In this document: positions 7,845 through 54,177 of the stretch, in pieces
How positions within the stretch are numbered: position 1 is the stretch's first letter
How the letters are laid out: each line of letters begins with the position of its first letter
DNA from: an uncultured Christensenellaceae bacterium
Lineage (GTDB): Bacteria; Bacillota; Clostridia; Christensenellales; UBA3700
Reading direction: 5' to 3'
DNA length: 64,000 nucleotides
Assembly (NCBI GenBank): GCA_944381365.1
Contig: CALWKW010000002.1
Location: 257,952-321,951, forward strand
Notes under the pieces: model-generated
Told to the model about the DNA's origin: nothing
What the model saw: the letters and a program-made list of their open reading frames with translations, nothing else
Database searches by the model: none
Made by a program: the position numbers and the translations under genes

Positions 7845-7938
7845 CTATAAAAAATATTAACATTAAAATTTTCTCCTGAATTCAATTCAAAATTTTTATA
7901 AATAGTATATCATAATTATTGTAAAACTCAAATCAACG

Positions 7939-8894: not shown

Positions 8895-8906
8895 GGAGAA
8901 AAGACT

Positions 8907-9317: not shown

Positions 9318-9325
9318 GGTGAAAT

Positions 9326-10028: not shown

Positions 10029-10048
10029 ATTACAGGAGGTATAACACT

Positions 10049-13030: not shown

Positions 13031-13315
13031 ATGGCAAACTATTTCAGAATTACAGCTTATCACCCGACCGAAAATCTCTCGGTCATTATGGATTCAAACG
13101 GACTGTTTGAAAAACTCTGGCAATTTTCATCCTTTATGGTATCCAAAGGCTTCAAAATCATAGAAGTCGGAGGCGAAGACAAATTCGATGATGGAGATAT
13201 GCCGAAAGCAGAATACGATAACGTCCACGTTATTTTGCGTGCATGCAAAAGCGGTGAAGCGGAAATTACAGGAAACCGCATTACGGTGGAAGGTAAATCA
13301 TACACTACACTATAA
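13031..13315 (+). CDS. Small conserved hypothetical protein (paralog of 37657..37941)
   Basis: 94 aa. 'YFRITAYHPTEN.SVIMDS.G.FEKLWQFSS..VSKGFKII.VGGEDKFD.GDMPK' is shared between both copies. Confidence 0.65.
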   Translation: MANYFRITAYHPTENLSVIMDSNGLFEKLWQFSSFMVSKGFKIIEVGGEDKFDDGDMPKAEYDNVHVILRACKSGEAEITGNRITVEGKSYTTL

Positions 13316-13317
13316 AA

Positions 13318-13346
13318 AGAAAAAGCCGCTTAATTGCGGTTTTTTC
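13318..13346. terminator. Terminator hairpin between convergent genes
   Basis: AAAAGCCGC-TTAATT-GCGGTTTTT. Confidence 0.7.
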
Positions 13347-13350
13347 GCTT

Positions 13351-36318: not shown

Positions 36319-37641
36319 ATGACAGAAAAAGATATTAGACCTATACCAAAATACATATTGAAACTAATACAAAAAATAGATAAGTTAAATTACCCTATGC
36401 CTGACGGACATGTCAGATTTTATTCTTATCTCACATCAAAGAAAGGCGAACTTATTAAAGTTACGGTAGCCGTAAAACACCGCTATAAAAATTGGTATTG
36501 CAAGCAAGTAGCTATACACGGATTACATTCAGAAAACTGCTATGTAAAAGACTTGGAATATTGCGGAATGGTAGGTATGGGATTTAGAGTCGGCTGGCAC
36601 GACGAAGGATTGCAGAAATACCGTAATTGGTTTGAAAGCAAAGATTGGTGCTATGCACAAGATAAATATTACGATCCCTATGCTCCGCTAATTAATAGAG
36701 AATATATATCTCGCTTTAAGGAATTCAAATACAGTGCTTACGAGCTTTACTATGGTAACGATATATTTAAGTACCTAAGACTTTATGAGCAATACCCTCA
36801 AATGGAAATGCTTATGAAATTCGGCTTTACCAGAATTGCACAAAGTAAAACAATACTAAAGCTAACAGGCAAAGACAGAAGCTTTTGCAAGTGGCTCATT
36901 AATCATAAAGAACAACTGCAATCTAAGTTCTACTATAACGATGTGATTGTAAAGGCATATAAGACAAACAGACCAGTAGATAAATTGCAATCATATAAAA
37001 GTGCTAAACTTCAGTTGCAGCACGATAGCAACCTATCTCAAATTAAAGAACTATTCAAAGGCAAAGAATTAGAACGCTTTTTCGATTATATCTCTTTTCA
37101 AGATACAAATCCGCATACTTTTTTAGACTATGTTAAAGCCTGTCAATATCTCGGTTTGGATATGTCAATAGACAAAAACCGCTTCCCTCATAATTTCAAA
37201 CGCTGGCACGATATACGAATTGACGAATATGCTACCAAAAAAGCTTTGGAAGATGCAGAAAAGAAAAAGGAACTCTATGCCAAGTTTGCATATGTAGCCG
37301 AAAAGTATATGTCCCTAGAAAAACAAAACAGCAGACAATACATAGCCATCATTGCTCAATCCCCTGCCGATTTGATAAACGAAGGCGAAGTGCTTCATCA
37401 CTGCGTAGGACGAATGAACTATGACCAAAGATTTATTAGAGAAGAAAGCCTTATCTTCTTTATACGCAATAAGCAAACCCCGGATATTCCTTTCGTTACC
37501 ATTGAATACTCTCTTAAAACAAGAAAAGTATTGCAATGCTACGGTGACCACGATAGCAAACCTAGTGAAGACATACTCCACTATGTCAATAAAATTTGGC
37601 TACCCTATGCCAACAAAACACTTAAGAAAATACCATCATGA
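36319..37641 (+). CDS. PcfJ-like protein
   Basis: 440 aa. Paralog of 11698..13017 ('EGEVLHHCVGRMNYDQRFIREESLIFFIR'). Confidence 0.6.
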   Translation: MTEKDIRPIPKYILKLIQKIDKLNYPMPDGHVRFYSYLTSKKGELIKVTVAVKHRYKNWYCKQVAIHGLHSENCYVKDLEYCGMVGMGFRVGWHDEGLQKYRNWFESKDWCYAQDKYYDPYAPLINREYISRFKEFKYSAYELYYGNDIFKYLRLYEQYPQMEMLMKFGFTRIAQSKTILKLTGKDRSFCKWLINHKEQLQSKFYYNDVIVKAYKTNRPVDKLQSYKSAKLQLQHDSNLSQIKELFKGKELERFFDYISFQDTNPHTFLDYVKACQYLGLDMSIDKNRFPHNFKRWHDIRIDEYATKKALEDAEKKKELYAKFAYVAEKYMSLEKQNSRQYIAIIAQSPADLINEGEVLHHCVGRMNYDQRFIREESLIFFIRNKQTPDIPFVTIEYSLKTRKVLQCYGDHDSKPSEDILHYVNKIWLPYANKTLKKIPS

Positions 37642-37993: not shown

Positions 37994-40861
37994 TTATCGT
38001 ATAATGTCGATAGGTTTACGCTTTGAAACAAAATAGCTTCCTATTAATGACACTAACAATGTAACAGCAAAAGATACCAGCAATATCAACAATATCTGTC
38101 TGATGCCAAACACCGATATGGGAATTAAAATACCTAGTTCATTACTTACCATTGAATTTATTAATAAACCTGCGATACCGCTTAATATCGATGATATAGG
38201 GAATATAATGGCAAAAAGAATAGCCCCTTCACACAAAACAATGTAAAATATATCCCTCGATGTCGCACCGATAGCTCTCAGAACCCCTATTTCTTTTTTT
38301 CTTGCCATGATAGAGTTTATCAAATAGTTTGCAAACATTATAGATGCAAAAATACCTATTCCCAAAGAAATATAATAGAATATTTTTTTCATAATATCCA
38401 TTGTGCCTTTGAGAAAATCTGCCTGTTCCATAATGCTATTTGACGTATAAATTCCTTCATACGCATTATCAAAATATTCAGTTATCGCTTTGACTATGTC
38501 AGATTGATTTTGTGAATCAATTTTTATTATTCCTACTCTTGCGTCGAGATGATTCGACTCCAAAATTGCCTTATCGTGTTCATATGCTACCATATTAACA
38601 AATGCTTTATTTTCCTCATCTACATAATATTCACCAGGATAGGACGAAAACTCTTTTTTTGTAACCCCTGTAGCTTCGCTCGGTATATATACACCAACAA
38701 TTTTAGCATCTATTTGGCTGCCGTCATCTAGTTTAATTTTTATGGCATTAAATTTATCTGCAATATTATAACTATTGATAAGCGACATGTTTGCCTGGGC
38801 AATTATCTGCAGTCCGCTTTTTCCTAAAGGATTATCCAAATAGCCACTTTCTATATCGTTACTGATTGCTATCGATGACAGATAATAAGCAACTGCCATT
38901 GCCAAATCCTCATCGCCATTTGTGTAATTTTGAATAATTTTCGATATATTCTCATCTTCCTTGTAAAGCTGAGCATTTTCAACAGCATATTCATAAATTT
39001 TTGACAATGAATATGCTTTGAATAGCTTGCTGTTTATACTATTAAAATTTTCACTTACCAAAGACAACTTACCAGATATATTTTGTACATATGTCAAATT
39101 CATTTCTCTACCGATACTAGATGATATCCCTGGTATATTAGTCATATTTCCCAATAAAGATGATATGTCCAAATACGAAATTATAGCTTCGTTGTCAGAT
39201 AAAGATGTCTTTTCTTCTCCTATCCACAGAATACTGGTATTACTTTTTCGGAATGTTTCAAAATCAGCAACAAAAGTATTTTTTTTGCTCGTTACCAGTT
39301 CATTCAAAATAGGCATCTCAAACTCATAACTGCTATGCGAAGGCACTCCATAATCAAAATCACTCATTTGCATAAGAGAATTAATATATTCTATACCGCC
39401 TTTGTGCAAGTATAATATAGAATGCCCGTCGGGATTAATATCTCCCACATCGCTTTTATAACCGTTATATTCTTCCGAAAGCGGGTCAATGCTTGCATTC
39501 CTTTCGTAATCGTAACCACTGTCAATAATACCTACAACTGTAAATTTGTTTTCCCAATCCAAAGTGATAGTTTTACCTAAAATACCATTTTCTTCATTTG
39601 TAGGCTCTATCATACTCCCGTCAATATAGATATCGTCAGTCTTATATGCTCCCGCCTTAAAACTTCTATATATATGATATGATATAGCTATTTCGCCATT
39701 TTCCTCAGGATATCTTCCCGCATAAAGTTTAAGTCCTAATTCATCTGCTACCATATCATCGATTTCGACATAGCCGTCTGCATACTTACTATAACAACCG
39801 TAACTTGATTCATTTTCCCTAATTGGCAAATATCTTTCATTTATAAGCACACCCACTTGATTTTTTTTGTATAATAAAGTGTAATTATCCCCCAAAGAAT
39901 AATCTGCATCTGCAAAATTCACCAAGTATTTATCTTCTGAATTAACAATTGCTGTGTATGTATTTTCTACAGAATCCCAAGCCGCCAAGCTATCAGCAAT
40001 TCCAAACAGCCCAAAGCAAACAATACATAGCAGTAAAGTGATAGCTAGCCGAATTTTTTTACTTTTAAGACTGTATGTCGACATCTTTACTACCGCCTTT
40101 GGCGATAATGAATACCTTTTAAAGGTTTTTGGAATTCTATCTTGTTCTTCATTAACATTCACGCTTTCTTCAATATCTTTCGCTACAGTTTCTTTTAAGC
40201 ATTTATCCTCAATTATAGTACCGTCAGCAAGCCTGATTATTCTATCCGCAAAAGAATTAGCAAAACCTTCATCATGCGAAACAACTAGCACCAAGCTGTT
40301 TCTTGATATTTCCTTAAGCAACTCCAATATTGAGCGACCTGTTTTTGCATCGAGCGCACCTGTTGGCTCATCGGCAAGTATTATTTTAGGATTTTTTATC
40401 AATGCTCTTGCAATAGCTACTCTTTGTTTTTGTCCGCCTGAAAGTTCGTTAATTTTCCTCTTAGAAAACGTCGACATATTAACTGCCGCCAAAACTTCTT
40501 CAATTTTGCTCTCTTGACTTTGGTGTTGTAAATTTTGTGCAAGCATTATATTTTCGCCCACATTAAAATTATCCAGCAAATTAAATTCCTGAAAAATAAA
40601 ACCTATGTCCGTATTCCTAAATTTGTCGAGTTTTATTTGACTTATATTTTGAATATCCACTCCATCGACTATTATTTGTCCGCTATCGGCTCTTTCTATC
40701 CCGCCAATAATATTTAGAAGTGTGCTTTTTCCTGCTCCGCTTTCACCAAGTAGAAACACAAGCCCTTTTGATGGTAAATCGCATGAAATATTATTGATAG
40801 CTAAAACACTTTCTTTTGATTTTGAAACATATTGTTTTGTTAGATTTTTAATTTGTATCAT
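37994..40861 (-). CDS. Fused ABC transporter: N-terminal ATPase plus large extracytoplasmic region plus FtsX/MacB-type permease
   Basis: Start at MIQIKNL (ATG 40861 after GGAGGA). Walker A 'GESGAGKS', signature 'LSGGQKQR', Walker B 'ILADEPTGALD'. C-terminal 'RKKEIGVLRAIGATSRDI' FtsX-like motif with TM helices. Confidence 0.8.
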   Translation of the reverse strand: MIQIKNLTKQYVSKSKESVLAINNISCDLPSKGLVFLLGESGAGKSTLLNIIGGIERADSGQIIVDGVDIQNISQIKLDKFRNTDIGFIFQEFNLLDNFNVGENIMLAQNLQHQSQESKIEEVLAAVNMSTFSKRKINELSGGQKQRVAIARALIKNPKIILADEPTGALDAKTGRSILELLKEISRNSLVLVVSHDEGFANSFADRIIRLADGTIIEDKCLKETVAKDIEESVNVNEEQDRIPKTFKRYSLSPKAVVKMSTYSLKSKKIRLAITLLLCIVCFGLFGIADSLAAWDSVENTYTAIVNSEDKYLVNFADADYSLGDNYTLLYKKNQVGVLINERYLPIRENESSYGCYSKYADGYVEIDDMVADELGLKLYAGRYPEENGEIAISYHIYRSFKAGAYKTDDIYIDGSMIEPTNEENGILGKTITLDWENKFTVVGIIDSGYDYERNASIDPLSEEYNGYKSDVGDINPDGHSILYLHKGGIEYINSLMQMSDFDYGVPSHSSYEFEMPILNELVTSKKNTFVADFETFRKSNTSILWIGEEKTSLSDNEAIISYLDISSLLGNMTNIPGISSSIGREMNLTYVQNISGKLSLVSENFNSINSKLFKAYSLSKIYEYAVENAQLYKEDENISKIIQNYTNGDEDLAMAVAYYLSSIAISNDIESGYLDNPLGKSGLQIIAQANMSLINSYNIADKFNAIKIKLDDGSQIDAKIVGVYIPSEATGVTKKEFSSYPGEYYVDEENKAFVNMVAYEHDKAILESNHLDARVGIIKIDSQNQSDIVKAITEYFDNAYEGIYTSNSIMEQADFLKGTMDIMKKIFYYISLGIGIFASIMFANYLINSIMARKKEIGVLRAIGATSRDIFYIVLCEGAILFAIIFPISSILSGIAGLLINSMVSNELGILIPISVFGIRQILLILLVSFAVTLLVSLIGSYFVSKRKPIDIIR

Positions 40862-40918
40862 GTAATCCTCCACATCCCTGGCAAACTACTGTATTGTATT
40901 TGCCAGGGATTATATGAT

Positions 40919-42412
40919 TTAGGTTCTATCTCTACCCTCTACGCCGTCAGCACCTTTTTCGCCGTTTGCGCCAGAAGCATGACGATCCCCGCCTAATAAA
41001 GTTTTACCGCCAAGGCCGCCTTCTCCACCTTCGCCGCCTTCGCCTTTATATCCAATCACACCTTTTGTTCCGTTAGATGTGGAGCAGTTAACGATTGCCC
41101 CTGTAAGATAAACAGCTGAACCGCCTTCGCCGCCCGAACCGCCATTGCCACCAGTACCGCCAGTGCCACCTTTACCGCCAACTGTTCCATAGACAAATAG
41201 TGTTCCGTCTCGGCCTTCACCGCCTTTGCCGCCCTGACCGCCATTGCCACCAGTACCGCCAGTGCCACCTTTACCGCCAACTGTTCCATAGACAAATAGT
41301 GTTCCGTCTCGGCCTTCACCGCCTTTGCCGCCCTGACCTCCTTTACCACCTTGGCCGCCAGCGCCACCATTACCGCCATAAATACTGAATTTAGTGGAAA
41401 TTTCAGTCTGCTCTAAATAACTATTAATACAATATGAATTATTAACCACTTTTATAGCATTATATATACCAATGCCGCCCTTACCTCCTGAACCTCCTGT
41501 TATTCCAGTATTACCAGTGTAACCTTGTAATCCGGGCTTATCTTTTTGTGTTTGTTTTTCTGGAACCGAAATCATTTTTGCGGCTTCTGCCGGCTGTTTG
41601 CCATTCGAGCCATTTCCTCCTCGAACTATTAGTTGTTTCATGTTATTTGTTACATAACCAGTAGCGCTAATGCCGTATCCACCTTGTAACCCATGAATAC
41701 CATTTGTGCCAATATTATTTGCCCCAGCGATACTTAAATTTCCTTCTCCGTAAAAAATAATTTCCTGACAATTAATTACGCTTGTTAAAGTACTGGAACT
41801 AATATTCCCACCCGTCAAAGTATTTGTACCATTAGAAATAATATTTAGTTTATTACACTCGTCTGCCACTAATAAAGTAGAATTAGACTTGCTAATCATT
41901 TTTGAATTTTTAAAAATGATAGTTAAAGATCTACTTCTTTGTTCCACATTTATGTTTACAGTTCTTTGTATATTATTAGTAGTAAACATTACTTGATCAA
42001 CATTACTCTTAATACTAAAACTCACGTTACCTTTGATCGTGAATATTGAATAATCAAGAGTAATGTTATAAACAGAACTTGAAGTGTTTGCAATTACTTC
42101 GTTTGCATACCACCTAGCATTAAGTTTATAATTCCCGTGTGAACCTTTTTGAATTACATTAATTATTTGTCCACTTCCATCTTCCCATCCAAGGAACTTA
42201 TATCCTAATTTTTGAGGGATGGGCAAAACAACAGAATTTTCAATTGTATAATTCCTAATTAGGTTTTGACAATTCTCGTAATTTTCATATGTGATTTCAT
42301 ATTCAATTATATTCCACATAGCTTGAATTGTTATGTCATAAGTATAAAGGAATTGAATATTTTCATCCATCATCACTCCTTCATAATACCATCCTAAAAA
42401 CTCATAGCCCAA
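40919..42412 (-). CDS. Repeat protein: Listeria-Bacteroides-type (Flg_new-like) repeats, a beta-helix-like middle, and a Gly-rich C-terminal repeat region. Lacks a signal peptide, so it is probably N-terminally truncated.
   Basis: Begins mid-repeat ('GYEFLGWYYEG', then 'GYKFLGWEDGSG'). C-terminal 'GGKGGTGGTGGNGGQGGKGGEGRDGTLFVYGTV' occurs twice exactly. Its start overlaps the end of the truncated hsdM. Confidence 0.5.
   Translation of the reverse strand: MGYEFLGWYYEGVMMDENIQFLYTYDITIQAMWNIIEYEITYENYENCQNLIRNYTIENSVVLPIPQKLGYKFLGWEDGSGQIINVIQKGSHGNYKLNARWYANEVIANTSSSVYNITLDYSIFTIKGNVSFSIKSNVDQVMFTTNNIQRTVNINVEQRSRSLTIIFKNSKMISKSNSTLLVADECNKLNIISNGTNTLTGGNISSSTLTSVINCQEIIFYGEGNLSIAGANNIGTNGIHGLQGGYGISATGYVTNNMKQLIVRGGNGSNGKQPAEAAKMISVPEKQTQKDKPGLQGYTGNTGITGGSGGKGGIGIYNAIKVVNNSYCINSYLEQTEISTKFSIYGGNGGAGGQGGKGGQGGKGGEGRDGTLFVYGTVGGKGGTGGTGGNGGQGGKGGEGRDGTLFVYGTVGGKGGTGGTGGNGGSGGEGGSAVYLTGAIVNCSTSNGTKGVIGYKGEGGEGGEGGLGGKTLLGGDRHASGANGEKGADGVEGRDRT
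41141..41338. repeat. Perfect tandem duplication, 2 x 99 bp (33 codons), inside the Gly-rich gene
   Basis: 41141-41239 and 41240-41338 are identical base for base by direct reading. Confidence 0.9.
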
Positions 42413-43463
42413 TCTTTCCGGTATCTTTTAATTTCGATATACCGTTGAGCATAAAAAGCATTTGTCCGTCGGATATAGGTGGCAAGCCTACGCTAAATCT
42501 GCCACCAGCTTTCTTGCTCTCGTTTTCAACGGCGTTTTTCTCCTTCTTCCATTCGATACCGAAAGGCGGATTGGATATTATATAGTCAAAGGTATAATCT
42601 GCAAAATGGTCATTGGACAAAGTGTCGCCGTGTTTCATATTCTCAGCATTACCGCCCTTGATAAGCATATCGGCTTTGGCTATGGCGAAGGTTTCTTCGT
42701 TGAGTTCTTGTCCAAAACATTTTATACTTGCGTCTTTATCCAGCTCAAGCAATCTTTCAGTCATACAACCCAGCATTTGACTTGTACCCATAGCCATATC
42801 GTATACCGTAGCTGTTATGCCCTCTTCTCTGAGTCTGTCTTCGTCTTCGCCGATAAGAATATCTGACATAAGATAAATAATATCTCTTGCCGTAAAGTGC
42901 GCCCCTGCTTGTTCGTCATAGGACTCGCTGAACTTTCGCACCAATTCTTCGAATATATAGCCCATATCGGTACTAGTAACTTTATCGGGACTCAAATCTG
43001 CTTTTTGCGAACAAAACTCCGAGATAACAAGATACAGCAATCCGTTGTCTTCCATCTTCTTGATTTCGTCTTCAAACTTAAAGTTGTTGAGAATATCTAT
43101 TACATTTTCGCTAAAACCTTGCAAATACATCCTGAAGTTTTCGCCGATATTAAATTCGTCGGTCAACAACTTCTCCAACGTCATTTTGCTGGTGTTGTAA
43201 AATAAATAACCTGACGCTCTTTTCAAAAAGCCGTCTTTGACTTCTATCCCCTTGCTCTTCAATTCGTCATATTTATCCCATACAGCCTGTCTTGTGCCTA
43301 CCAACGCATCGCTAAATCTCTTGATTACACACATAGGCAATATAACCTTGCCGTATTCGTGAGGTTTGTAAACTCCTACCAATTTGTCGGCTATTGCCCA
43401 TATTAAGTTAGCCTTTTCTTGCACGTTGATTGTTGTCTGTTTTTGTCTCTCGCTTATCGTCAT
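42402..43463 (-). pseudogene. hsdM: Type I restriction-modification methylase subunit HsdM, 3'-truncated remnant
   Basis: HsdM N-terminal domain ('KANLIWAIADKLVGVYKPHEYGKVILPMCVIKRF'). Catalytic 'YIISNPPFG'. Ends shortly after 'LFMLNGISKLKDTG', whereas full-length HsdM continues ~150 aa. No hsdS or hsdR is nearby. Confidence 0.7.
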
Positions 43464-43624: not shown

Positions 43625-44437
43625 TCAATCTAACTTCTTCCATATTTTTCTGTCCGCAAAATATATTTCACCATTGACAGTATTTCTTGCATCTTTCATT
43701 AATACATATCCGTAAAACTTTCCATTCGCATAGGGAGGCTTGCAAATTTTTACCCACTTCAAATCAGGATTCTCTTCGTTTGTGGCCTTAAGATACTTCT
43801 TATCAGCATCTTTCGAACACCACAATTCATATAGAGTCTTTAATTCAGGCTTTTGTGGCATATCAGCATGTTCAAGGTTGTTATTAATAAACTCATTCTC
43901 TTTCGGTTTTTGCTGGCGTTCTTGTACTTTGTGATACTCCTTATTATATTGAGTTACATGTGGTTTAGGTTGATTTACTTGTTTCGTATTAGGCAAAATC
44001 TTTTCGCTAACAGTTTTTTCCTGAGATACTTTAAAAGCATTTTTTACTTTTAAAGCTTTTACTACTGTCCATACTATTAAAACAAAAATAAAAAGTATCG
44101 TTATTGATGATAAAATGTATAAAATTGTTTGACTTATCGATTCTATAAACGCTAACACTGGCGTGACAGCGCTTAACAGTATTATCGAAATCAAAATATA
44201 CAAAGCTATTCTAGTTTTTCCGCCCGCTACCCTGTCTTTTAATATTTTCATTGAGAACAAGGTACCTACGCATATAGTAGCTAATGAAAAAGATACACTT
44301 AATATGCCCTTAATTATAACTTTATCTATAAGAGAAAAACCCGTAATCTCAAATATCTTAGGAACAAACATACCAAATAGCATTGTTATGATAATTGCCT
44401 GAAATGATTTCGCTACTTTTTTCAAATTATCCTCCAA
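43625..44437 (-). CDS. Membrane protein (about 4 TM) with an uncharacterised cytoplasmic C-terminal domain
   Basis: 270 aa. Hydrophobic segments in the first ~130 aa. Starts 12 nt after the stop of the GIY-YIG gene on the same strand. Confidence 0.5.
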   Translation of the reverse strand: MEDNLKKVAKSFQAIIITMLFGMFVPKIFEITGFSLIDKVIIKGILSVSFSLATICVGTLFSMKILKDRVAGGKTRIALYILISIILLSAVTPVLAFIESISQTILYILSSITILFIFVLIVWTVVKALKVKNAFKVSQEKTVSEKILPNTKQVNQPKPHVTQYNKEYHKVQERQQKPKENEFINNNLEHADMPQKPELKTLYELWCSKDADKKYLKATNEENPDLKWVKICKPPYANGKFYGYVLMKDARNTVNGEIYFADRKIWKKLD

Positions 44438-44449
44438 TAAAACTCAATT

Positions 44450-45283
44450 TTATTTGGTTCGATATATTTTATCTAATGTTTTGCCGTCTTTGTTTTTCCA
44501 CTCTGTCCAACCGTTTGTCGAGCCGCCTAAAACAAAATCACTCGCTCCACTAGGAGTATTAAATTCTAATGTAACTTTAAGAAAATACTTATCTACTTCC
44601 TGAACAATATCTCCTTTTTCTACAAGTACTCGTCTTTGCTTATTGTATTTTTCAAGATTAACATCTTTTTGCATATTTATTTCAGAGCCTTCCAATACCT
44701 GGAATTTATCGCCATTGTAAACACCATAAGCAGTAATGCCTAGTCTCGTAGTATGAAAAATTTCCGATTCATTAAGACTTTCTTTTGCATTATCCATCTT
44801 ATAGCCTTGAGTCGCCATAATAAACTGTATCTCTTCATAAACTTCTTCTATTGACGGCAAATCGTATTCGTCAATTTCGTATTGAGGTTTTACAAAATTC
44901 TCAACTTTATAACGATTTGACTCGTGCGCCTTAATTATCGCGTATTCTTCAAGACCGCTTATCATATCAAGGGAAAATGTTTTATTATCTGCAAGAAACA
45001 TAATCGCTTTATTCCAAAAATCTTTCGAACGATTATGATCATCCAACCTAGTAACCCCATTGCGTGTCTGTCCAATGTAAATTTGAGCTATCTTATTCTC
45101 GTCATTTTCGTTTATCAAATAATATATTCCAGGTCTATTTATGCCCGTTATCTTCTTTGCTTCGGATAGTAGGGGGCGAGGAATCACATAAGTTGTCATT
45201 GTTGATAGATGTCGACGTATGGACCTGATTCCGTCTGGTTGCCCGTTTAAATAAATTACTTCAAGTTTTTTGCTTTGTGCCAT
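44450..45283 (-). CDS. GIY-YIG nuclease domain protein with a DUF4357-like C-terminus
   Basis: 'PGIYYLINENDENKIAQIYIGQTRNGVTRLDDH' GIY-YIG motif. C-terminal 'ASDFVLGGSTNGWTEWKNKDGKTLDKIY', as in DUF4357 proteins commonly found next to type I R-M genes. Confidence 0.65.
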   Translation of the reverse strand: MAQSKKLEVIYLNGQPDGIRSIRRHLSTMTTYVIPRPLLSEAKKITGINRPGIYYLINENDENKIAQIYIGQTRNGVTRLDDHNRSKDFWNKAIMFLADNKTFSLDMISGLEEYAIIKAHESNRYKVENFVKPQYEIDEYDLPSIEEVYEEIQFIMATQGYKMDNAKESLNESEIFHTTRLGITAYGVYNGDKFQVLEGSEINMQKDVNLEKYNKQRRVLVEKGDIVQEVDKYFLKVTLEFNTPSGASDFVLGGSTNGWTEWKNKDGKTLDKIYRTK

Positions 45284-45513
45284 TTATACCTCTTTGCTTA
45301 ACATATATTTTCGCGTATATTATAACACAAATAAATATACAATACAAGATTTTACATTAATAATATGCACTTCCTTTTGTAGTGCACTTAATGGCAGAAA
45401 TAATTGTGAAAATCTACTAGTATCACAATTTAATACCTGCAAAATTAACAGAAGTATTGCCAGATATAAAAAATGGGATTATAATATTTATAGTAATAAA
45501 TATCGGTGACAAA

Positions 45514-46266
45514 ATGTTAAAGAAAATAGTTGTTTTTATAATCGTCATTGCAGTAATATCCGTTGGATTTACGGCTTGCGCTCCTACGCCGCCTAGTATA
45601 ATAATGCAAAGATGTTTTCAATCAACAGTAAATATATTTCCTGAAGATGCTCCTGTGCATATCAAGACAATAGATGTACTTAATAACAGCTTTATGTTCA
45701 GATGTATTATCGAAACAGAAGAACTGAACGAATTTGAGCCGTCCAAATATGACATAGGCAATGTTTATTTTATTGCCTATACAGGAAATCTGTCGAGCGA
45801 TCCTTTTGTGATTAGAGGTAAATATTCAATATGCACTGATAACCCCACAGAAGATAATCCTCTATTTGCTAAATTTTTGAAAGACAATCATTGGGGAAAG
45901 GATTATACCGATTATGAAATATTGTACGGTGCAGAAAAACCTGCCGTATTGTTTGAGGAAGAAGATACAGAAGTTTTGAATGAGCTTGCGGGCAAGATGG
46001 CAGAAAAAATTACAGAAAAACAAATCGGCAAAACAAACGAATATGTTCTCGGAGAGATAAGAAGCAACCCTGCAAGCGGAAAATACTATTACGGTGATTT
46101 TAACCTTAAGGATATGACAATGAAGTTTATCCGTATTAATATTACAAAAGAAACGCTGCAGGCTTATAAAGACAGCGGAGAAGTAATATTATCAGGCATA
46201 TCGTCAGAAGATTTTGATCCGTACAGGTATGCAGAATATGCAGATGAGATTATAAGCAATACATAG
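45514..46266 (+). CDS. Lipoprotein, function unknown
   Basis: Start at MLKKIVVF (ATG 45514). Lipobox 'GFTAC'. Confidence 0.55.
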   Translation: MLKKIVVFIIVIAVISVGFTACAPTPPSIIMQRCFQSTVNIFPEDAPVHIKTIDVLNNSFMFRCIIETEELNEFEPSKYDIGNVYFIAYTGNLSSDPFVIRGKYSICTDNPTEDNPLFAKFLKDNHWGKDYTDYEILYGAEKPAVLFEEEDTEVLNELAGKMAEKITEKQIGKTNEYVLGEIRSNPASGKYYYGDFNLKDMTMKFIRINITKETLQAYKDSGEVILSGISSEDFDPYRYAEYADEIISNT

Positions 46267-46364
46267 CAAAATTGCAAAACACGCAAGGACTACCCTATGC
46301 GTGTTTTTTGAAAATAATATAATTTTATTTGACTCTATTTCCTTTTTAATTTTTAATGTTTTTA

Positions 46365-49300
46365 TCAAAGAACATCAAAATCATCAAACATTGATTGCTG
46401 AATTGTAGTAGACTTGTTTTTGGCGGATAGAATTATGTCGGCAATATATTCATATGCTTTTACAAATGAATTTGGAATAAAAATTATTTTTATGTTGTTT
46501 TGTTTGCATATTTCCATTTTCATTCTATCAGACTTCTCTCTTGCCAACACTCCAAAATGTTCGCCCCCATTAACCTCAAAAACAATAACCGGTTTCTTTC
46601 CCCAAAATGTTTTCTCATAAAGTACTAAATCAAATTCCTTAGATGCCAGATTTTGCGGCAAATTGTTTTTGAAAATTTTATTTAACTTAACATTTCTTTC
46701 TGCTTCAAAAGACTTATGGCATGTACAGAAATGAGATACTGTTTTAAAAAATTCATCTTCAGCAACACTACCGTTAGATTTTCCTACTTCTATTTTTACT
46801 GATTCATTAGGAGGTACAACTATTTTTCCGTTATGTTTTGCATATTGAATCAGATTATAAAGATCATCCTTTTTATCTGATAAAATATCCATAATTTCCA
46901 CATCGGCAGCGACAATTAATTTGCTTTTCGCTCTGGTAGTTGCAACATTAATTAATTCGTAATTATTCTTTAGCCATTTGTATGTATTTTTACTAGTCTT
47001 GCTTGATATCGCAGTCGAAAAAATAATAGTATCTCTTTCTGCTCCTTGCAAAGAATGTATAGTGCCGCAATCAATATTTTTGATATTTCTTTCTTTCAAT
47101 AGCTTTTGCAATAAATCTTTTTGGTTTACAAAAGGAGTAATGATATACGCATCGTCGATTTTGTTCCTTTCTATATAATCAACAATAGCTACTGCCTCAT
47201 CTATTGCTTCATTCTTCTGCTTTACATTTTGATTTTTTACATCAATTACTTTTAAGTCGCCTTCAAAATCCACATAAGACAAATTCAATGAATTATTATA
47301 ATATCTCTGATTTGAAAAGCCTATTATTTTCTTTCCGCATCTATAATGATATTTTAATAAAATGTATTTTGAAATATTATCATTTTCTACCATTACATCA
47401 AGGATAGAATTGGTTTTGTAATCATAAATATCTAATATATTATATTGTTCTTTTAAGTCTTCATTGACTTGGTCTTCTAGTATAATAACAGGCTTCAACT
47501 GATTGGGATCTCCAACTAGCAACAAAGATTCGGCTTTTGCTATCGGAAGCAAAGCTGTAGCAACATTGCATTGCCCTGCCTCATCCATAACTACCAAATC
47601 AAACATAAATTTCGGCGAACCTAATCTTCTTGAAGAGATATTAGTCGAGAATATTACAGGAAATACTTCGACCAACTTTTTCATATTCAAATCGTCCTGC
47701 ATCCATTTATTGAAACTTGTAGCACGCTCATCGTCATCTTCGATATTGCATATTCCTATCAATTCCGAATATCTTGGCTTTTTTAGTTTCAATATATACT
47801 GCAACGATTTGAAAAATAAAAATTGCGATAGATAATAGTTTTCAGTTAATGGAGTAAATAATGATGTTATTTCTTCATTAGATATTTCTGGATACTGTTT
47901 TAGTTCATTCTTTAATTGCTCAATCTTTTCTTTTACGATATCGATGATTTTACTGCTATTATCACCAAAAGAATCAATTAATCGACGCGAACTCTCTAAA
48001 CAATTTTCTATTTCGCTTCTTTTTTCTTGGATATTTAACAAATTAATTAATTTTTTATTTCTATCGTCATCAGTAACTTTTATTTTATTCAATAAATCAT
48101 CTTTTGCGATTTTATCTGTTTTATAGTTATATAATTCTCTTATTCTTAATGTAGCCTTCTTTACATCTTCAAAATTACCGAGTCTTAAATAAGGAAAATT
48201 GATTATTTCGTCTCTATATGAAAATTTTAATTTTTCAACTATTCCGTTTACCGGCTTATTGTTTGATGAACAAATCAAAACTGTTTTATCATTATAGAAA
48301 GCACTGAGAGTCACATTTATAATTGTTTGAGTTTTGCCAGTTCCGGGCGGTCCTTGCACAAAGGTTACAGGATATTTCAAAGCATTGTACAAAACTCTCA
48401 TTTGATTAATGTTTATTCTTTTATCGTAAATAATCAAAGATGGTTTTTTCCGCCTGAAATTATTTCTTTTCGTGATATTCCCAAAAAATGATTTTAAAGG
48501 TATAGGCAACTCATTGTCATAATACTTTCTTTCAATAGTATCGTAGGTTTCTGTTAGATCAACAGGGATATCTCTTTGCAAAAGCATTATATCAGGTCTT
48601 GTATCAATGTACTCGCCAGGCTTTAAGTTCTCTTTGATTACAGATTGATAAAAATCAAATTTATCAGCAAATGTTCTGGTAAATTCTTCAACATCCATTT
48701 TTATATAATTGAATAAAGAATGTCTTCGACCGTCTACTATAAAAGATTGATTGAACCTTAATTTATTGTTCAGAACCAAAGCCTTTTTAACTGGATCAAA
48801 TGTAATTGCATAATAACATATTACATATTTATTTTTGCCTTCATCTATGGAAAAACAATTTATTGCCAATGTGTAAAAACTGTTACTGTTATTTTTGAGA
48901 TTGTAGTGGTAAATATCGGCTATTATTTTTTTAGCCTGTTCATCACTTAACGAATAAGTTTTATTTTTTCTTAACTGAATTAAATCTATTCCCGGAATTG
49001 CCGTATATTCTTTCTGACAAGGATCGTTATCTAATATGTTGCATTCGGCATAATAATTTAGCACATTGTGATTAAAATGGTCATAATTTAGCCAAGCACA
49101 TTTACTTAAATTTTTCTCTATTTTATTAATTAAATCATCGGGCACATCATATGATGCCAAATCTATTATTTCCGCTTGCTGAATATTTTCGAAATATATC
49201 CAATATTCAAATGTCTTCATGGATTTTTTATCGTTAAATGCAGTCACATACAATTTATGACTATCCAAATCAATATCTTTTACTGCGATCCAATAATATG

Positions 49301-49385
49301 TATTTTCGCCCTTTTGATTTATATATGATATATTAAGCCATTTGCCTTCTTTTATTGCTTTTGATATCTTATCCCCGATATTCAT
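46365..49385 (-). CDS. SF1 (Upf1/COG1112-like) helicase with a large unknown N-terminal region and a C-terminal Vsr/DUF559-like endonuclease-fold domain
   Basis: 1006 aa. 'QGPPGTGKTQT' Walker A, 'VVMDEAGQ' Walker B, 'LVGDPNQLKPV', 'TIHSLQGAERDTIIFS', 'NVATTRAK'. C-terminal 'EFDLVLYEK...PVIVFEVNGGEHF'. Confidence 0.7.
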   Translation of the reverse strand: MNIGDKISKAIKEGKWLNISYINQKGENTYYWIAVKDIDLDSHKLYVTAFNDKKSMKTFEYWIYFENIQQAEIIDLASYDVPDDLINKIEKNLSKCAWLNYDHFNHNVLNYYAECNILDNDPCQKEYTAIPGIDLIQLRKNKTYSLSDEQAKKIIADIYHYNLKNNSNSFYTLAINCFSIDEGKNKYVICYYAITFDPVKKALVLNNKLRFNQSFIVDGRRHSLFNYIKMDVEEFTRTFADKFDFYQSVIKENLKPGEYIDTRPDIMLLQRDIPVDLTETYDTIERKYYDNELPIPLKSFFGNITKRNNFRRKKPSLIIYDKRININQMRVLYNALKYPVTFVQGPPGTGKTQTIINVTLSAFYNDKTVLICSSNNKPVNGIVEKLKFSYRDEIINFPYLRLGNFEDVKKATLRIRELYNYKTDKIAKDDLLNKIKVTDDDRNKKLINLLNIQEKRSEIENCLESSRRLIDSFGDNSSKIIDIVKEKIEQLKNELKQYPEISNEEITSLFTPLTENYYLSQFLFFKSLQYILKLKKPRYSELIGICNIEDDDERATSFNKWMQDDLNMKKLVEVFPVIFSTNISSRRLGSPKFMFDLVVMDEAGQCNVATALLPIAKAESLLLVGDPNQLKPVIILEDQVNEDLKEQYNILDIYDYKTNSILDVMVENDNISKYILLKYHYRCGKKIIGFSNQRYYNNSLNLSYVDFEGDLKVIDVKNQNVKQKNEAIDEAVAIVDYIERNKIDDAYIITPFVNQKDLLQKLLKERNIKNIDCGTIHSLQGAERDTIIFSTAISSKTSKNTYKWLKNNYELINVATTRAKSKLIVAADVEIMDILSDKKDDLYNLIQYAKHNGKIVVPPNESVKIEVGKSNGSVAEDEFFKTVSHFCTCHKSFEAERNVKLNKIFKNNLPQNLASKEFDLVLYEKTFWGKKPVIVFEVNGGEHFGVLAREKSDRMKMEICKQNNIKIIFIPNSFVKAYEYIADIILSAKNKSTTIQQSMFDDFDVL

Positions 49386-49714
49386 AACACATCCATCTTA
49401 CCTTAACTTTATAAAACTAATAAGATTATAACATATTATTAAAATTTATACAACAAAATCTATAAGAAAAGCCTTAAAAGAGCAATAAAATAAACATTCT
49501 ATTAAATGTATAGGTGTCTCACCAAGCGGTTCCCATAAGAACACCTAAGTTCTTATGGTACTTTATATTAACTGAATATTGGGTTTCAATTATCTAAAAT
49601 TTTTATAAATACATTTATTTGCAAAAAAGTTTAATAAAAAGATTATTTTTTTAAAAATTATAGAAATACTGATATAAATATGTTATAATATGTTATAACA
49701 ATTAGGAGATTTCT

Positions 49715-50113: not shown

Positions 50114-52159
50114 TTATCTTGTGAGATTTATATTGAAATTTTTCTTAAGCATGTGCATTTTTATAATTGTAATGGCCAAAGTGATGACTATAGATAAAAC
50201 AAGCAAAATCGCATTGCTACCGGCTACTTGACAGACAAAGAAAAGTATATTCTTTTCTATCAATACTTTGGCAATTATGTTTACAATCAAAGCTATAGTA
50301 TTGGCAGACAAAATCACAGGCAGAGCCTGCAAAATCAATATACCGAAAATACTTTTTTCTCCTATTCGCAAAGTCTTGAGTATATACAATTCTCTAGTGT
50401 TTATAATGGCAATATGGCTAAGAACTGCCAGCATATACAAAGACGCCAATATTATACCGACAAAAAGTATTGTGTAGACATATGGCTGCATCGTCTTTTG
50501 TATTATCCGAGCATCTTTGTAGGCATAATAATTTTCATTGTATATATCGACATCTTTGTCCCACCAATAATCAATTTTATCTTTGTCAGCGGTCTTTATA
50601 AAATATCCGTAATATAGTCTTGCCATGCTGATATCATGATAATCCGATGGCGAAACATAGAGAATATATTCCTCAGCATTTTCGTTTGTCCTATCGACAG
50701 ATTGGATTTTATAATCTTTTGAATAAAGAGTCGTGCGATAATCTTTTATTTCCCAAGTAATAGTATTTTTTCTCAAATCTATATACTTAGGCTCATTTTT
50801 CCCCAACGCATAGTATATTCCAAAATTGACAATACACTCTCCTTCTTTTAGAGTATCGTCCATTACGATTTTTGTTTGATTATGAAAGATATTGAATAAT
50901 ACAGATACTTCAGGAGTAAGGATAATTTCCTTGGCGGTTTTATCATTGAGATATACGGCATAATTTAAATTTATTTCCTCGCTAGAAGGTATATCCCTGA
51001 TAAATTCTTTGACGACAAAACTTTTGTCAAAATAATCGAGCATATCCCCTTCTTTTACAGTGTCAAGAAGTTTATTGTCGAGCACCTTTTTAGTGGCATA
51101 ACCCAGTTTTATCTCATTGTCTTTCAGACTGTCATCTACAATTATATATTTGCTTTGTCCTTCTGTCCCATAATAATTGTAATATCTCAAAAGTCCTGTT
51201 GTATCCGCACCTTCTATTTTTTGTGCAAACAAGTTCATATCATCGTCATTATAAAGAGTCGAGTATTCATAAACCTCAATATTTTTGAGATATTCATTTC
51301 TACAATTCATCAAAAGAATTGCAAGGGGAAACGCTATCAACACAAACATTAAAGCAAGGATAAATATCGAGGTCAATTTTTTTGCAAAAGTATTTTTCAG
51401 TTTTGCAAAACAAAATTTGTTGAGAGAAGAAAAGGTCAACTGACGGGGCTTTCCAATTGTATTTTGGGGCAAATCCTTTTCAGTCTTATCGATATTGATT
51501 TTTTCATTGTTAGATGATAATGAATTTTTTTGATAAAGCTCAGAGTCTTCTTGTATATCGCCTTTGTAAATCCTTATTATTCTGTCGGCATACTTATCGG
51601 CAAATTCTACTTTGTGAGTGATGACAAGCACGAGTTTTTGCAAAGAAATCTCTTTGAGAATTGACATAACGTTCTCGCCGTTTTTTTCATCCAGACTTCC
51701 TGTCGGCTCGTCTGCCAAGAGTATCTTGCTGTCGTCAAGCAAAGCTCTTGCTATTGCAACTCTCTGCATCTCTCCGCCGCTCAACTTGGATACCTTGGTG
51801 TTGATATATTTTTTTATGCCAAGGTTTTGCAATATCTCTGTTTGCTTTTGAGTATCGGCAGAGCATATATCGAGATTTTGTTTTACGGTAAGACCGCCCA
51901 AAAGGTTTCCGTCCTGAAAGATTATACCGAAAATGTTGTGCGAGTTTATTTTTTCATCCGTATTGAGAGGTGTGCCGTCATACAATACTTGACCGCTGTC
52001 AGGCTTGACTATGCCCGTAAGGATATTAAATAGCGTACTTTTACCGCTACCGCTCTCGCCTAATATCGCCACAAGTCCTTTTTCGCCGAATGAAAGATTT
52101 ATATCATTTAAAGCGGTAGCGTTTTTGAACTTTTTGTTTATTCCTATGACTTCGAGCAT
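50114..52159 (-). CDS. Fused ABC transporter ATPase-permease (second of a tandem pair)
   Basis: Start at MLEVIGINKKF (ATG 52159). 'GESGSGKST', 'LSGGEMQRVAIARAL', 'LLADEPTGSLD'. TM helices in the C-terminal part. Confidence 0.75.
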   Translation of the reverse strand: MLEVIGINKKFKNATALNDINLSFGEKGLVAILGESGSGKSTLFNILTGIVKPDSGQVLYDGTPLNTDEKINSHNIFGIIFQDGNLLGGLTVKQNLDICSADTQKQTEILQNLGIKKYINTKVSKLSGGEMQRVAIARALLDDSKILLADEPTGSLDEKNGENVMSILKEISLQKLVLVITHKVEFADKYADRIIRIYKGDIQEDSELYQKNSLSSNNEKINIDKTEKDLPQNTIGKPRQLTFSSLNKFCFAKLKNTFAKKLTSIFILALMFVLIAFPLAILLMNCRNEYLKNIEVYEYSTLYNDDDMNLFAQKIEGADTTGLLRYYNYYGTEGQSKYIIVDDSLKDNEIKLGYATKKVLDNKLLDTVKEGDMLDYFDKSFVVKEFIRDIPSSEEINLNYAVYLNDKTAKEIILTPEVSVLFNIFHNQTKIVMDDTLKEGECIVNFGIYYALGKNEPKYIDLRKNTITWEIKDYRTTLYSKDYKIQSVDRTNENAEEYILYVSPSDYHDISMARLYYGYFIKTADKDKIDYWWDKDVDIYNENYYAYKDARIIQKTMQPYVYTILFVGIILASLYMLAVLSHIAIINTRELYILKTLRIGEKSIFGILILQALPVILSANTIALIVNIIAKVLIEKNILFFVCQVAGSNAILLVLSIVITLAITIIKMHMLKKNFNINLTR

Positions 52160-54177
52160 ATGCTTATCTCCTTGTTGAATTTTGCATAGGTAATAAAGTA
52201 TGACAAAATTATAATTGCCGTCATGACTAATACTGAACAAACAACTGCCCAACCACTCAGTACATATAAGTACATAGAGTCGAATTCCAAATCAATAATC
52301 TGACAATGATACATTATTGGCAAGCTTATTGCCATAAAAAGCACCAAAGCTATCGCCAAAATGAAGAAATTGACAAAAAGATTATAGGCTATGAGGCTGT
52401 GCTTGTTGAATCCCGCCTGCCTCATGTTTCTGAAAAGTATTTTTTTTTCATCTGTTTCGAAAAGATTGAGATTGACCAAAAGTATTATGGCAAGCAATGC
52501 AAAAACACCGAATACAGGCATACCGATTTTGATGTTTAAATCATGTCTTTGCATAGCTGTTGTAATAAAAGTAGTATTAAGTTTGTCATGATAAAAATTA
52601 TCTTTTTTTACTTCTTCGATAGGCACGTAATATCCTACAGAAGAATCGAGATATAATTTAGGACCTATTTTGTCCAGACCGATTGCATATTCGTTGTCAT
52701 ATATTCCTACTATCGTAAAATCATATCCGTTGAGCTTAATATCTTTTTGAAGTTTGTTAAAATAACCTTGAAGATTAGCCATTACATCTTCGATTTCGCA
52801 ATCAAAACGAAAACACATATAGCCCGTAGAAGCAAGAACTTCTCTGTCTGTAGCATTTTCGTCTATTGATCTTCCTGCTATTACGGGCTCGCCGATATAA
52901 TTGAATATGCTGATTCCATTGTTGTTTACTCTTCCCATAAAACCGTTCTCTTCATAATACGAGAAAGACCCTATCGATAAGTAAAGTGCAGTAAGAGAAG
53001 GGTAAGGACGATAATCTTCAGGGAGTTTCCATGAAAATTTGTAGTCCAAAACATCGCTTTTAAAAATTCCGCTTATAATAAATTCTGCGTCATATTTAAG
53101 AAATAATTTATCTCCTACTTCTAATTTTGAATATTTTGCATTGAATTCAGAAATAAGTACTTCGTTTTCTTTTGTAGGTAACTTTCCTTCTTTAAGCTCA
53201 AAATGTTCTTTTTCTTTTTCAAAGTCGACAAATATGGTACACATCTGCCAATGGTCAGATTTAATGGCAAAAAAGCTATCCTCTTGTCGTTCCTGAACTT
53301 TGACAAACTCGACACCCAAAAGCTCAGCTTGCTTGCGAATAAGGCTGTCACTGCCGGATATGGCCTGAGTTGTACCAAAACAAAAACCCGTCAAAGCGAC
53401 AAACAGAAAGATTGTGCAAAATATAATTCTAGCAAGTTTTGCCTTTATGCCCCACGAAAATATTTTAAAAAACTTTTTGACACCTATACTTGTTTTTTTG
53501 CTTTGTATAGTACATTCTTTATCGTCTACATGTATATCTTCGGCAAAGCATTTATCCTCACATACTTCGCCTTCTTTCAAAGTAATCATTCTGTCGGCGT
53601 AATTTGCGAGCGTTTTGGGATTGTGTCCTACGCACAAAACAAGTCTTTCATGAGAAATTTCTTTGAGTATTTTATGTACTTCTTCGGCATTTTTAGGGTC
53701 AAGATTTGCAGTAATCTCATCGCAAAGAAGCACCTGTGTATCTCTCAGCAAAGCCTGTGCAATAGCTACTCTTTGTCTTTCGCCTCCGCTCAAATTGCGA
53801 GCCAATTCGTCTTTTTTATCCTCTATGCCGAGTTTCTTAAGAACTTCTAATCTTTTTTGTGCATCGGAGCAAAAAAATGAAAGTCCGTTGTCTACCGTAT
53901 CGTCCTCTATAAGAGCGGTAGACTGCGAAATGTATGCAAATATTTTTCCTCTCATATTCTCTTTGGCAAAAGTATTGAGAGAAGTCAATTTTTTATTGCC
54001 ATACCAAATTTCACCAGATGAGGGTTTTTCGAGAAGTCCTATACACTTCAAAAGCGTACTCTTTCCGCTTCCGCTTTCCCCTATGAGTGCGACAAAGCCT
54101 TTGTCCGGCAATTCAAGATTTATGTCCTGCAAAACCGCAAAATTATAGTTTTTGTTAAGTCCTATTATTTTAATCAT
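52144..54177 (-). CDS. Fused ABC transporter ATPase-permease (first of a tandem pair)
   Basis: 'GESGSGKSTL', 'LSGGERQRVAIAQAL', 'LLCDEITANLD'. C-terminal TM helices. Confidence 0.75.
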   Translation of the reverse strand: MIKIIGLNKNYNFAVLQDINLELPDKGFVALIGESGSGKSTLLKCIGLLEKPSSGEIWYGNKKLTSLNTFAKENMRGKIFAYISQSTALIEDDTVDNGLSFFCSDAQKRLEVLKKLGIEDKKDELARNLSGGERQRVAIAQALLRDTQVLLCDEITANLDPKNAEEVHKILKEISHERLVLCVGHNPKTLANYADRMITLKEGEVCEDKCFAEDIHVDDKECTIQSKKTSIGVKKFFKIFSWGIKAKLARIIFCTIFLFVALTGFCFGTTQAISGSDSLIRKQAELLGVEFVKVQERQEDSFFAIKSDHWQMCTIFVDFEKEKEHFELKEGKLPTKENEVLISEFNAKYSKLEVGDKLFLKYDAEFIISGIFKSDVLDYKFSWKLPEDYRPYPSLTALYLSIGSFSYYEENGFMGRVNNNGISIFNYIGEPVIAGRSIDENATDREVLASTGYMCFRFDCEIEDVMANLQGYFNKLQKDIKLNGYDFTIVGIYDNEYAIGLDKIGPKLYLDSSVGYYVPIEEVKKDNFYHDKLNTTFITTAMQRHDLNIKIGMPVFGVFALLAIILLVNLNLFETDEKKILFRNMRQAGFNKHSLIAYNLFVNFFILAIALVLFMAISLPIMYHCQIIDLEFDSMYLYVLSGWAVVCSVLVMTAIIILSYFITYAKFNKEISICSKS

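Follow-up and report, generated by a model that had tools for sequence, protein, structure and literature searches.

What might a protein of 1006 amino acids (aa) do that joins an Upf1-like helicase to a nuclease and carries in front of both a long region of its own? The question is raised by a gene in a 64,000-nucleotide stretch of contig CALWKW010000002.1, from an uncultured Christensenellaceae bacterium (hereafter, the window). An earlier note on this DNA had placed an open reading frame (ORF) of this length at 46365-49385, and the frame was found exactly there, on the minus strand. The DNA around it has a G+C content of 27-31% and is the most AT-rich part of the window, the other parts of which lie at 33-48%; that a 3-kb frame should stay open by chance in such DNA is very unlikely. 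In our reading, the product is a stand-alone, horizontally mobile helicase-nuclease that, to judge from its genomic context, probably acts as a one-protein defense against phages or other invading DNA. The architecture, the conserved motifs, the single-gene nature, the defense context, the mobility, and the existence of precedents are the grounds for this reading. It introduces no new principle: motor-plus-nuclease defense proteins are well established. What the gene offers is an abundant, compact candidate that lends itself to experiment, with a 240-aa domain still to be explained and, plausibly, a sensor of its own.

Domain architecture of the protein

The protein has four parts, which are, from the N to the C terminus, a WYL-like barrel, a family-specific region, a superfamily 1B (SF1B) helicase of the Upf1-like type, and a DUF2726 nuclease (Table 1). 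The AlphaFold2 model of all 1006 residues reached a predicted local distance difference test (pLDDT) value of 81.8 and a predicted template modeling (pTM) score of 0.73. We consider this architecture secure, with little room for doubt.

The helicase core was recognized by Pfam AAA_11 (residues 324-635; E = 1.3e-30; 107.5 bits against a cut-off of 27) and AAA_12 (residues 660-828; E = 2.6e-18; 66.8 bits against a cut-off of 27). Its SF1 motifs can be read as Q327, GPPGTGKT (344-351), DEAGQ (600-604), GDPNQLKPV (624-632), HYR (679-681), TIHSLQGAE (774-782), and NVATTR (812-817), and an alignment of 69 diverse family members, with identities down to 29%, shows no variation at the motif residues. 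In Walker A this applies to G344, P345, P346, G349, and K350, and in motif II to E601 and Q604, D600 being nearly invariant. The 39 best PDB neighbors of the full-length model in Foldseek were structures of SETX, UPF1, Aquarius, IGHMBP2, Sen1, Dna2, and ZNFX1 (E = 4.5e-21 to 7e-16). The Upf1-like helicase with intact SF1 motifs described in the earlier note is thus borne out both by Pfam matches above their cut-offs and by structural neighbors of the Upf1 family. RecA1 carries an all-helical insertion, modeled as long helices at residues 404-418, 428-470, 478-495, and 516-573, which by analogy with the 1C/stalk elements of Upf1 may be an accessory domain.

The Dna2 motor family among these neighbors, together with the superfamily of the nuclease, would also fit a housekeeping or accessory helicase-nuclease of DNA repair or replication, an analog of Dna2, RecB, or AddA that serves the upkeep of the cell's own genome by resecting DNA ends or 5' flaps and whose WYL-like barrel binds single-stranded DNA (ssDNA), as in some Pif1 helicases. 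The WYL domain of a bacterial Pif1 helicase binds ssDNA, and WYL domains sense DNA damage via ssDNA. The names chosen by depositors agree with such a role: most homologs bear none, and some, from Clostridia metagenome-assembled genomes (MAGs), are called "DNA helicase," "AAA family ATPase," or "DNA2/NAM7 family helicase." However, no NCBIfam housekeeping equivalog was reached, the best match being IGHMBP2 with a score of 131 against a cut-off of 349, and the genomic evidence, given below, speaks further against this role.

For the C-terminal part, Pfam DUF2726 (PF10881) scored 23.8 bits in the full protein, just below its cut-off of 24.7, and 26.3 bits when the tail was searched in isolation. 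We excised residues 855-1005 from 43 diverse family members; 42 of these tails matched DUF2726 (best E = 1.8e-16), 11 matched REase_MTES_1575, and 4 matched DUF559. A profile of the 43 tails found one solved structure, the mobile-intron endonuclease 3r3p (E = 3e-3). VSR, DUF559, DUF2726, and 3r3p share one group of the PD-(D/E)xK superfamily (Steczkiewicz et al., PMC3424549), and DUF2726 has been described as a DNase with the restriction endonuclease fold that is fused to Abi-type N-terminal domains (Anantharaman et al., PMC3710099). The fold suspected earlier, a Vsr/DUF559-like tail, is therefore present, and its exact family is DUF2726. Two strings had been singled out in that tail, FDLVLY and VIVFEVNGGEHF, which correspond to residues 917-922 and 932-943, respectively. 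E875, D918, E936, G939, H942, D952, and K955 are conserved in at least 90% of the 69 aligned members, a pattern expected of an active enzyme; E875, D918, E936, H942, D952, and K955 are candidate catalytic residues. The full-length Foldseek search was dominated by helicase matches and did not inform on the nuclease.

The single structure matched by the nuclease profile being a homing endonuclease of a mobile intron, the gene could also be thought of as a selfish element, spread by a homing-type nuclease and aided by the helicase during strand invasion or repair at the cut. Its movement as a tight one-gene block with about 170 bp of upstream DNA would suit such an element, but known homing endonuclease genes do not look like this one, which encodes three modules in 1006 aa and an ATPase that is conserved in full. 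Moreover, neither the clustering of 29 loci nor the Pfam scan of 143 neighbors at GTDB loci (both described below) revealed an association with introns, inteins, or recombinases, and the insertion sites are unrelated intergenic positions with no conserved target gene. We find a selfish gene scarcely credible.

The N-terminal third

When residues 1-321 were searched with HMMER against 1.84 billion cluster representatives, 321 clusters were retrieved at E ≤ 1e-3. In nearly all full-length matches, the aligned part begins within the first 30 residues of a protein about 1000 aa long, suggesting that the N-terminal region is a fixed part of a single architecture and not a promiscuous domain. Profile searches with 27 members gave no Pfam or PDB-sequence match to this region. 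Modeled separately, residues 1-321 had a pLDDT of 82.7, with values of about 90-96 over residues 1-90 (88-96 over residues 1-80 when the full-length model is counted in), and residues 1-80 formed an N-terminal helix followed by five strands. The 14 best PDB neighbors of this model in Foldseek were all WYL-domain proteins (about 85 aligned columns; probability of about 1.0; E = 2e-3 to 3e-2). They included BrxR (7qfz, E = 2e-3, probability of 1.0; and 7t8k), PafBC (6sj9), and CapW (7tb5 and 9c5g), and DriD appeared lower in the list. Among the predicted viral structures of BFVD, Foldseek matched small proteins of phages, and the names of several read "WYL domain-containing." The faint WYL/SH3 likeness that had been noticed in the first 70 or so residues thus reappears at the top of the structural matches. 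At the level of sequence, PADLOC WYL models matched 2 of the 27 members (E = 1.5e-3 and 7e-3), the window protein being matched by one model (E = 1.5e-3), and Pfam WYL (PF13280) matched none of the 27 at E ≤ 1. Based on the predicted structure, we assign residues 1-80 to a divergent Sm/SH3 barrel of the WYL-like type. By analogy with its structural neighbors, it is a putative sensor of a ligand or of ssDNA.

The remainder of the N-terminal third, residues 81-320, always accompanies the barrel at the N terminus of the proteins of about 1000 aa. It was modeled as three helices followed by an alpha/beta unit with a three-stranded meander, with good confidence except at residues 100-130 or so and beyond about 280. 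Beyond the barrel, the N-terminal region of about 330 aa that had earlier been left unrecognized remains so, and residues 81-320 found no Pfam, no PDB-sequence, and no convincing Foldseek match in PDB or BFVD. Alignments with CapW and DriD covered 171-213 columns, but their root mean square deviation of 15-18 Å was too poor to establish an extension like the WCX domain for this part.

A gene that moves alone

We called the ORFs within 7 kb on either side of the gene at 29 loci and clustered them all against all. Setting the helicase aside, each family was confined to 6 of the 29 loci at most, those that recurred being generic helix-turn-helix (HTH) and ABC proteins. The gene thus lacks a conserved partner, which argues for an autonomous, single-gene system. 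The surroundings are wholly different from one homolog to the next, and many of them are defense islands. Among the 143 nearest neighbors at the loci of GTDB species representatives, no Pfam family recurred either, the maximum being 4 of 143. The earlier note had named a housekeeping helicase in conserved synteny as the finding that would speak against a role in defense; across the 29 loci, no common neighbor family of that kind was found.

The window is identical to a metagenome scaffold from ENA (L090), and a protein identical to that of the window is encoded at an unrelated chromosomal site (L091/L093). Comparison of the two sites delimits a block with 98.6% identity that spans 46350-49554 of the window, that is, the helicase gene with 169 bp upstream and 15 bp downstream. 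The adjoining block (44445-46309), which carries a 269-aa ORF and a PDC-S14 candidate, is only 87.8% identical to its counterpart in L091, where a KAP NTPase gene separates the two blocks. The different identities of the blocks and the gene lying between them suggest that the helicase gene was recently exchanged as a discrete one-gene unit. The coding sequences differ at 23 nucleotides and at no amino acid, and a set of differences that are all synonymous indicates purifying selection on the entire protein. The upstream stretch that travels with the gene probably carries its own promoter. A scan for consensus promoters returned 30 against 26.8 expected, which is not above chance, and a combined promoter and terminator scan performed no better than on shuffled sequence in this AT-rich DNA. 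At the outer edge of the 98.6% block lies a hairpin with a 10-bp stem; its counterpart in L091 has diverged and is no longer a perfect hairpin.

These results bear directly on the role in repair or replication raised above. Several homologs do lie between ordinary metabolic genes, as such a role would predict, but neither synteny nor a partner is conserved over the 29 loci, the distribution is patchy and crosses phyla, and the G+C content of the gene is low relative to its surroundings. The identical protein at two unrelated chromosomal sites, in a block more similar than its flanks, and the strong defense genes that adjoin the gene in five of nine contexts inspected in detail also disagree with it. 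We judge a repair or replication enzyme to be very unlikely.

Family and distribution

A word-index search returned more than 120 full-length homologs with 57-99% identity. About 320 clusters at 50% identity carry the N-terminal module, nearly all of about 1000 aa. Among the GTDB species representatives, the full architecture was present at 24 loci, from Clostridia, Lachnospiraceae, Erysipelotrichaceae, Acholeplasmataceae, Staphylococcaceae, Coriobacteriaceae, and a MAG of Cryomorpha (Bacteroidota). The spread of the family is patchy and cross-phylum. No full-length member turned up in the phage and plasmid collections, which speaks against a helicase of phage replication or of plasmid conjugation.

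One homolog (P0103; 998 aa, 61% identity) is deposited under the rumen fungus Anaeromyces robustus, where it lies on a contig of 150 kb and bears the name "putative DNA helicase." Its nuclease residues are conserved. It reflects either gene transfer from a bacterium to a fungus or contamination.

Defense genes around the gene and its homologs

Defense genes adjoin the gene in five of the nine contexts that were inspected in detail. In the window it lies 1.1 kb from a full-length PDC-S14 candidate, composed of GIY-YIG and DUF4357, and near a truncated type I methyltransferase gene. At the unrelated site with the identical protein, the helicase is followed by the KAP NTPase, the same PDC-S14, a ThsB-TIR gene, a restriction-modification (RM) pair, three more TIR genes, and a SIR2-STALD ThsA. 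A homolog with 79% identity is preceded by AbiTii, a Ymh HEPN protein, and an AAA/S8-peptidase pair, and one with 67% identity by QatABCD, a PLD-DEAD-DUF3427 protein, an AbiJ_NTD3 kinase, and a NUDIX gene. In the case of a 57% homolog, HNH, methyltransferase, pEK499_p136, helicase, and DUF4238 genes follow. A PADLOC scan of the 143 nearest neighbors at the GTDB loci added Drt2, AbiD, BrxA, BrxB, the type IV restriction enzyme mREase_IV, PsyrT, NsnA, PbeA, and PDC-S01. A non-random-looking association with defense genes, a variable location, and horizontal transfer, by which defense systems are generally recognized, were thus all seen, the first of them in counts without background correction.

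Besides these contexts, the most widespread homolog (P0024, present in 114 blocks of the collection) is followed in L001 by a protein with a HAD_SAK_2 domain (13164-13673), its other neighbors being housekeeping genes.

How the protein may work, and what weighs against defense

If the protein does act in defense, its N-terminal module would sense a nucleic-acid cue of infection, most likely ssDNA or else a small anionic ligand, and would recruit or license the enzyme. Of these, ssDNA is our preferred guess, since CapW and DriD bind it through their WYL domains (PMC11662680, PMC13004042). Fusions of WYL domains to SF1 helicases and to nucleases were catalogued in 2014 and proposed to be ligand regulated (PMC4012209). 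The SF1B motor, driven by ATP, would then track 5' to 3' along a single strand of the invader or along a replication or recombination intermediate, and would feed this strand to the C-terminal nuclease for cutting, in a coupling like that of RecB or Dna2. The outcome would be destruction of the phage genome, or abortive infection if host DNA were also cut. As for the target, Upf1-type motors act on both DNA and RNA, and by analogy the Vsr-clan nuclease argues for DNA.

The last point also touches on a related reading, in which the protein is an abortive-infection toxin that, once infection is sensed, degrades nucleic acids of host and phage indiscriminately, possibly including RNA, and kills or arrests the cell. 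It shares the evidence from architecture and context with the defense reading set out so far. The eukaryotic Upf1-like motors are RNA helicases, RNA or RNA/DNA intermediates have been proposed as the cue of Mokosh (Millman et al., 10.1101/2022.05.11.491447), and Abi-type genes (AbiTii, Ymh HEPN, and AbiD) are found among the neighbors. However, the characterized relatives in Vsr, DUF559, and DUF2726 are DNA endonucleases, and the sequence does not separate an enzyme that spares its own cell from one that kills it. A toxin of this kind, which is a variant of the favored explanation and not a true alternative to it, appears unlikely to us.

Several points weigh against a one-protein defense against invading DNA. 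About half of the inspected contexts are plainly housekeeping or metabolic (L001, L004, L005, and L008), and the numbers of defense neighbors are raw counts that are not scaled to the genomic background. No defense hidden Markov model (HMM) spans the full protein: the PADLOC models of MkoC, MkoA, and Hhe match the helicase core only, and the NCBIfam scores are far below their cut-offs. The WYL assignment draws on a predicted structure with Foldseek E values of 2e-3 to 5e-2 and has almost no support from sequence, and the model is less confident in the nuclease part (pLDDT of 48-83). The target, the polarity, and the coupling are derived from relatives and not from the window protein. Finally, searches of the literature for DUF2726 with helicases and for Upf1-like single-gene defense returned no description of the family.

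We put forward, more tentatively than the defense role itself, that the N-terminal 320 residues may constitute an infection sensor of a new kind that forms part of the effector itself, which would make the protein an immune machine that senses, translocates, and cuts within one chain. If this were true, the swapping of N termini on a common helicase-DUF2726 chassis would amount to modular retargeting to different phage cues, for which the family offers a test case. It offers another for WYL-type sensor domains that control an enzyme directly instead of via transcription. If the defense role holds, the helicase-nuclease class of Hhe, Mokosh II, and Nhi would gain an abundant and compact immune system that Firmicutes of gut and rumen encode in a single gene, and it is one that present defense annotators would overlook or mislabel as a partial MkoC.

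Other features of the window

The gene lies in a low-G+C island bracketed by three paralogous transporter genes (Table 1). A look-up of the flanking ABC-transporter protein in search of an "empty" site returned the same arrangement only. The PDC-S14 candidate is flanked on either side by an ORF without family match. One of them, the 269-aa ORF, recurs together with PDC-S14 in L091/L093 beside the Thoeris genes, with 87.8% nucleotide identity, and the two may form a pair. A two-gene system of the helicase and this ORF was considered and rejected: the ORF moves with PDC-S14 in the 87.8% block, the KAP NTPase intervenes in L091, and the ORF is missing at all other loci.

Next to these genes, an hsdM-like ORF retains the N-terminal half of a type I methyltransferase and runs directly into a 497-aa ORF with a Listeria-Bacteroides repeat. 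The latter contains internal repeats at 41120-41378 that are 92.5% identical at an offset of 99 bp. No hsdS or hsdR was seen near the truncated hsdM, and the locus looks like a decayed or rearranged RM locus. Two paralogs of about 440 aa may be remnants of conjugative elements near the island; one of them (36319-37641) is assigned to Pfam PcfJ in the annotation of the source contig.

Table 1. Features of the helicase-nuclease gene and of its surroundings (positions in the window; residues of the 1006-aa protein)
Feature	Position	Strand	Basis or remark
Complete coding sequence	46365..49385	-	ATG start, 1006 codons plus stop; ORF list and translation
Predicted five-stranded Sm/SH3-type barrel, WYL-like (residues 1-80)	49146..49385	-	Predicted structure
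Family-specific alpha/beta region (residues 81-320)	48426..49145	-	No convincing match
Upf1-like SF1B helicase core, RecA1 and RecA2 (residues 321-860)	46806..48425	-	Pfam, Foldseek, motifs
Walker A, GPPGTGKT (residues 344-351)	48333..48356	-	Read in translation
All-helical RecA1 insertion of ~170 aa (residues 404-573)	47667..48176	-	Secondary structure of the model
Motif II / Walker B, MDEAGQ (residues 599-604)	47574..47591	-	Read in translation
DUF2726 / Vsr-like PD-(D/E)xK nuclease domain (residues 873-986)	46428..46769	-	Profile matches and conserved residues
Upstream non-coding stretch moving with the gene	49386..49554	-	Within the 98.6% block
Hairpin with 10-bp stem	49533-49558		At the outer edge (49554) of the 98.6% block
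269-aa ORF	45457-46266	+	No family match; flanks PDC-S14
PDC-S14 candidate, GIY-YIG and DUF4357	44450-45283	-	E = 2e-67
~270-aa ORF	43625-44437	-	No family match; flanks PDC-S14
hsdM-like ORF	42402-43463	-	N-terminal half of type I methyltransferase only; PADLOC MTase_I, profile positions 3-342 of 661, E = 7e-134
497-aa ORF with Listeria-Bacteroides repeat	40919-42412	-	hsdM-like ORF runs directly into it
Three paralogous ABC-ATPase/FtsX-type transporter genes	37994-40873, 50114-52252, 52144-54177	all -	Bracket the low-G+C island
Paralogs of ~440 aa	36319-37641, 11698-13017	both +	~71% nucleotide identity

Comparison with known systems

Like Dna2 and RecB/AddA, the protein has an SF1 motor covalently joined to a PD-(D/E)xK nuclease, which would act on the translocated strand. 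In Dna2, however, the nuclease is N-terminal and the gene is a conserved housekeeping gene, whereas the window gene is sporadic, mobile, and linked to defense islands. With the WYL sensors CapW, BrxR, DriD, and PafBC, the likeness is limited to the barrel, which in the predicted model superposes on their WYL domains. These sensors are transcription factors with a winged HTH, whereas the window protein has no HTH and its barrel is fused directly to the enzyme. WYL domains regulate defense systems (PMC11662680, PMC13004042).

Mokosh combines a COG1112 helicase with a PLD-family nuclease, and both its ATPase and its nuclease sites are required for defense (10.1101/2022.05.11.491447). Type II Mokosh (MkoC) resembles the window gene in being a single gene in which a COG1112/Upf1-like helicase precedes a C-terminal nuclease, and MkoC is the best PADLOC match of the window protein (E = 1e-47). 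This match covers the helicase only, its best stretch being profile positions 671-953 of 1136. The nuclease of the window protein is of the PD-(D/E)xK type, not of the PLD family, and its WYL-like N terminus has no counterpart in Mokosh. No PLD model was among its Pfam matches at E ≤ 1, and lacking this domain, the protein is not a Mokosh system. The earlier note had proposed a Mokosh-like candidate, either a variant or a different system in view of the PLD-type nuclease of Mokosh. Its remark on the nuclease was correct, and by nuclease type Hhe is closer than Mokosh.

In Hhe, a single-gene defense known from the work of Gao et al. in 2020, a nuclease of the Vsr type reportedly follows an Upf1-like helicase. 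The window protein likewise has in one polypeptide an AAA_11/AAA_12 helicase followed by a Vsr-clan nuclease (with matches to DUF2726, MTES_1575, and DUF559), and Hhe models match its helicase core. However, it scored only 86.2 bits against NCBIfam NF042953 ("DUF4011 domain-containing anti-phage protein Hhe"), the cut-off of which is 2000, and over the helicase stretch only. At 1006 aa, it is about half the size of Hhe, the profile of which has about 1800-1900 positions. Its N terminus consists of the WYL-like barrel and the unique 240-aa region, and its nuclease is of the DUF2726 subfamily. Neither DUF4011 nor DUF3320, which are regions of Hhe, was among its Pfam matches at E ≤ 1. Without these two domains and with a score so far under the NCBIfam cut-off, the protein is not Hhe.

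A further arrangement is a sister architecture, AAA_11-AAA_12-DUF2726, in proteins of about 840-1050 aa from Pseudomonas, Oxalobacter, Nocardia, Clostridium, and an island of E. coli O157. Their core can be aligned with that of the window protein over residues 300-970 or so, at 23-28% identity; of 10 such proteins, 9 score above the DUF2726 cut-off and the tenth above that of MTES_1575. They are annotated simply as "AAA domain-containing protein." In E. coli O157:H7 (L102; NZ_CP124741.1), the sister gene lies at 7522-10202, is 26% identical over residues 306-967, and is split by the annotation into ORFs of 171 and 722 aa. It is located in an island rich in insertion sequences and adjoins a PAPS reductase / ParB-N pair. 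In the sister proteins, neither the WYL-like barrel nor the 240-aa region is present, and their N termini, which are unrelated and shorter (about 120-345 aa), have no Pfam match. The helicase and DUF2726 core is thus a widespread architecture with interchangeable N termini, from which the window family is set apart by its WYL-like barrel and the 240-aa region that goes with it.

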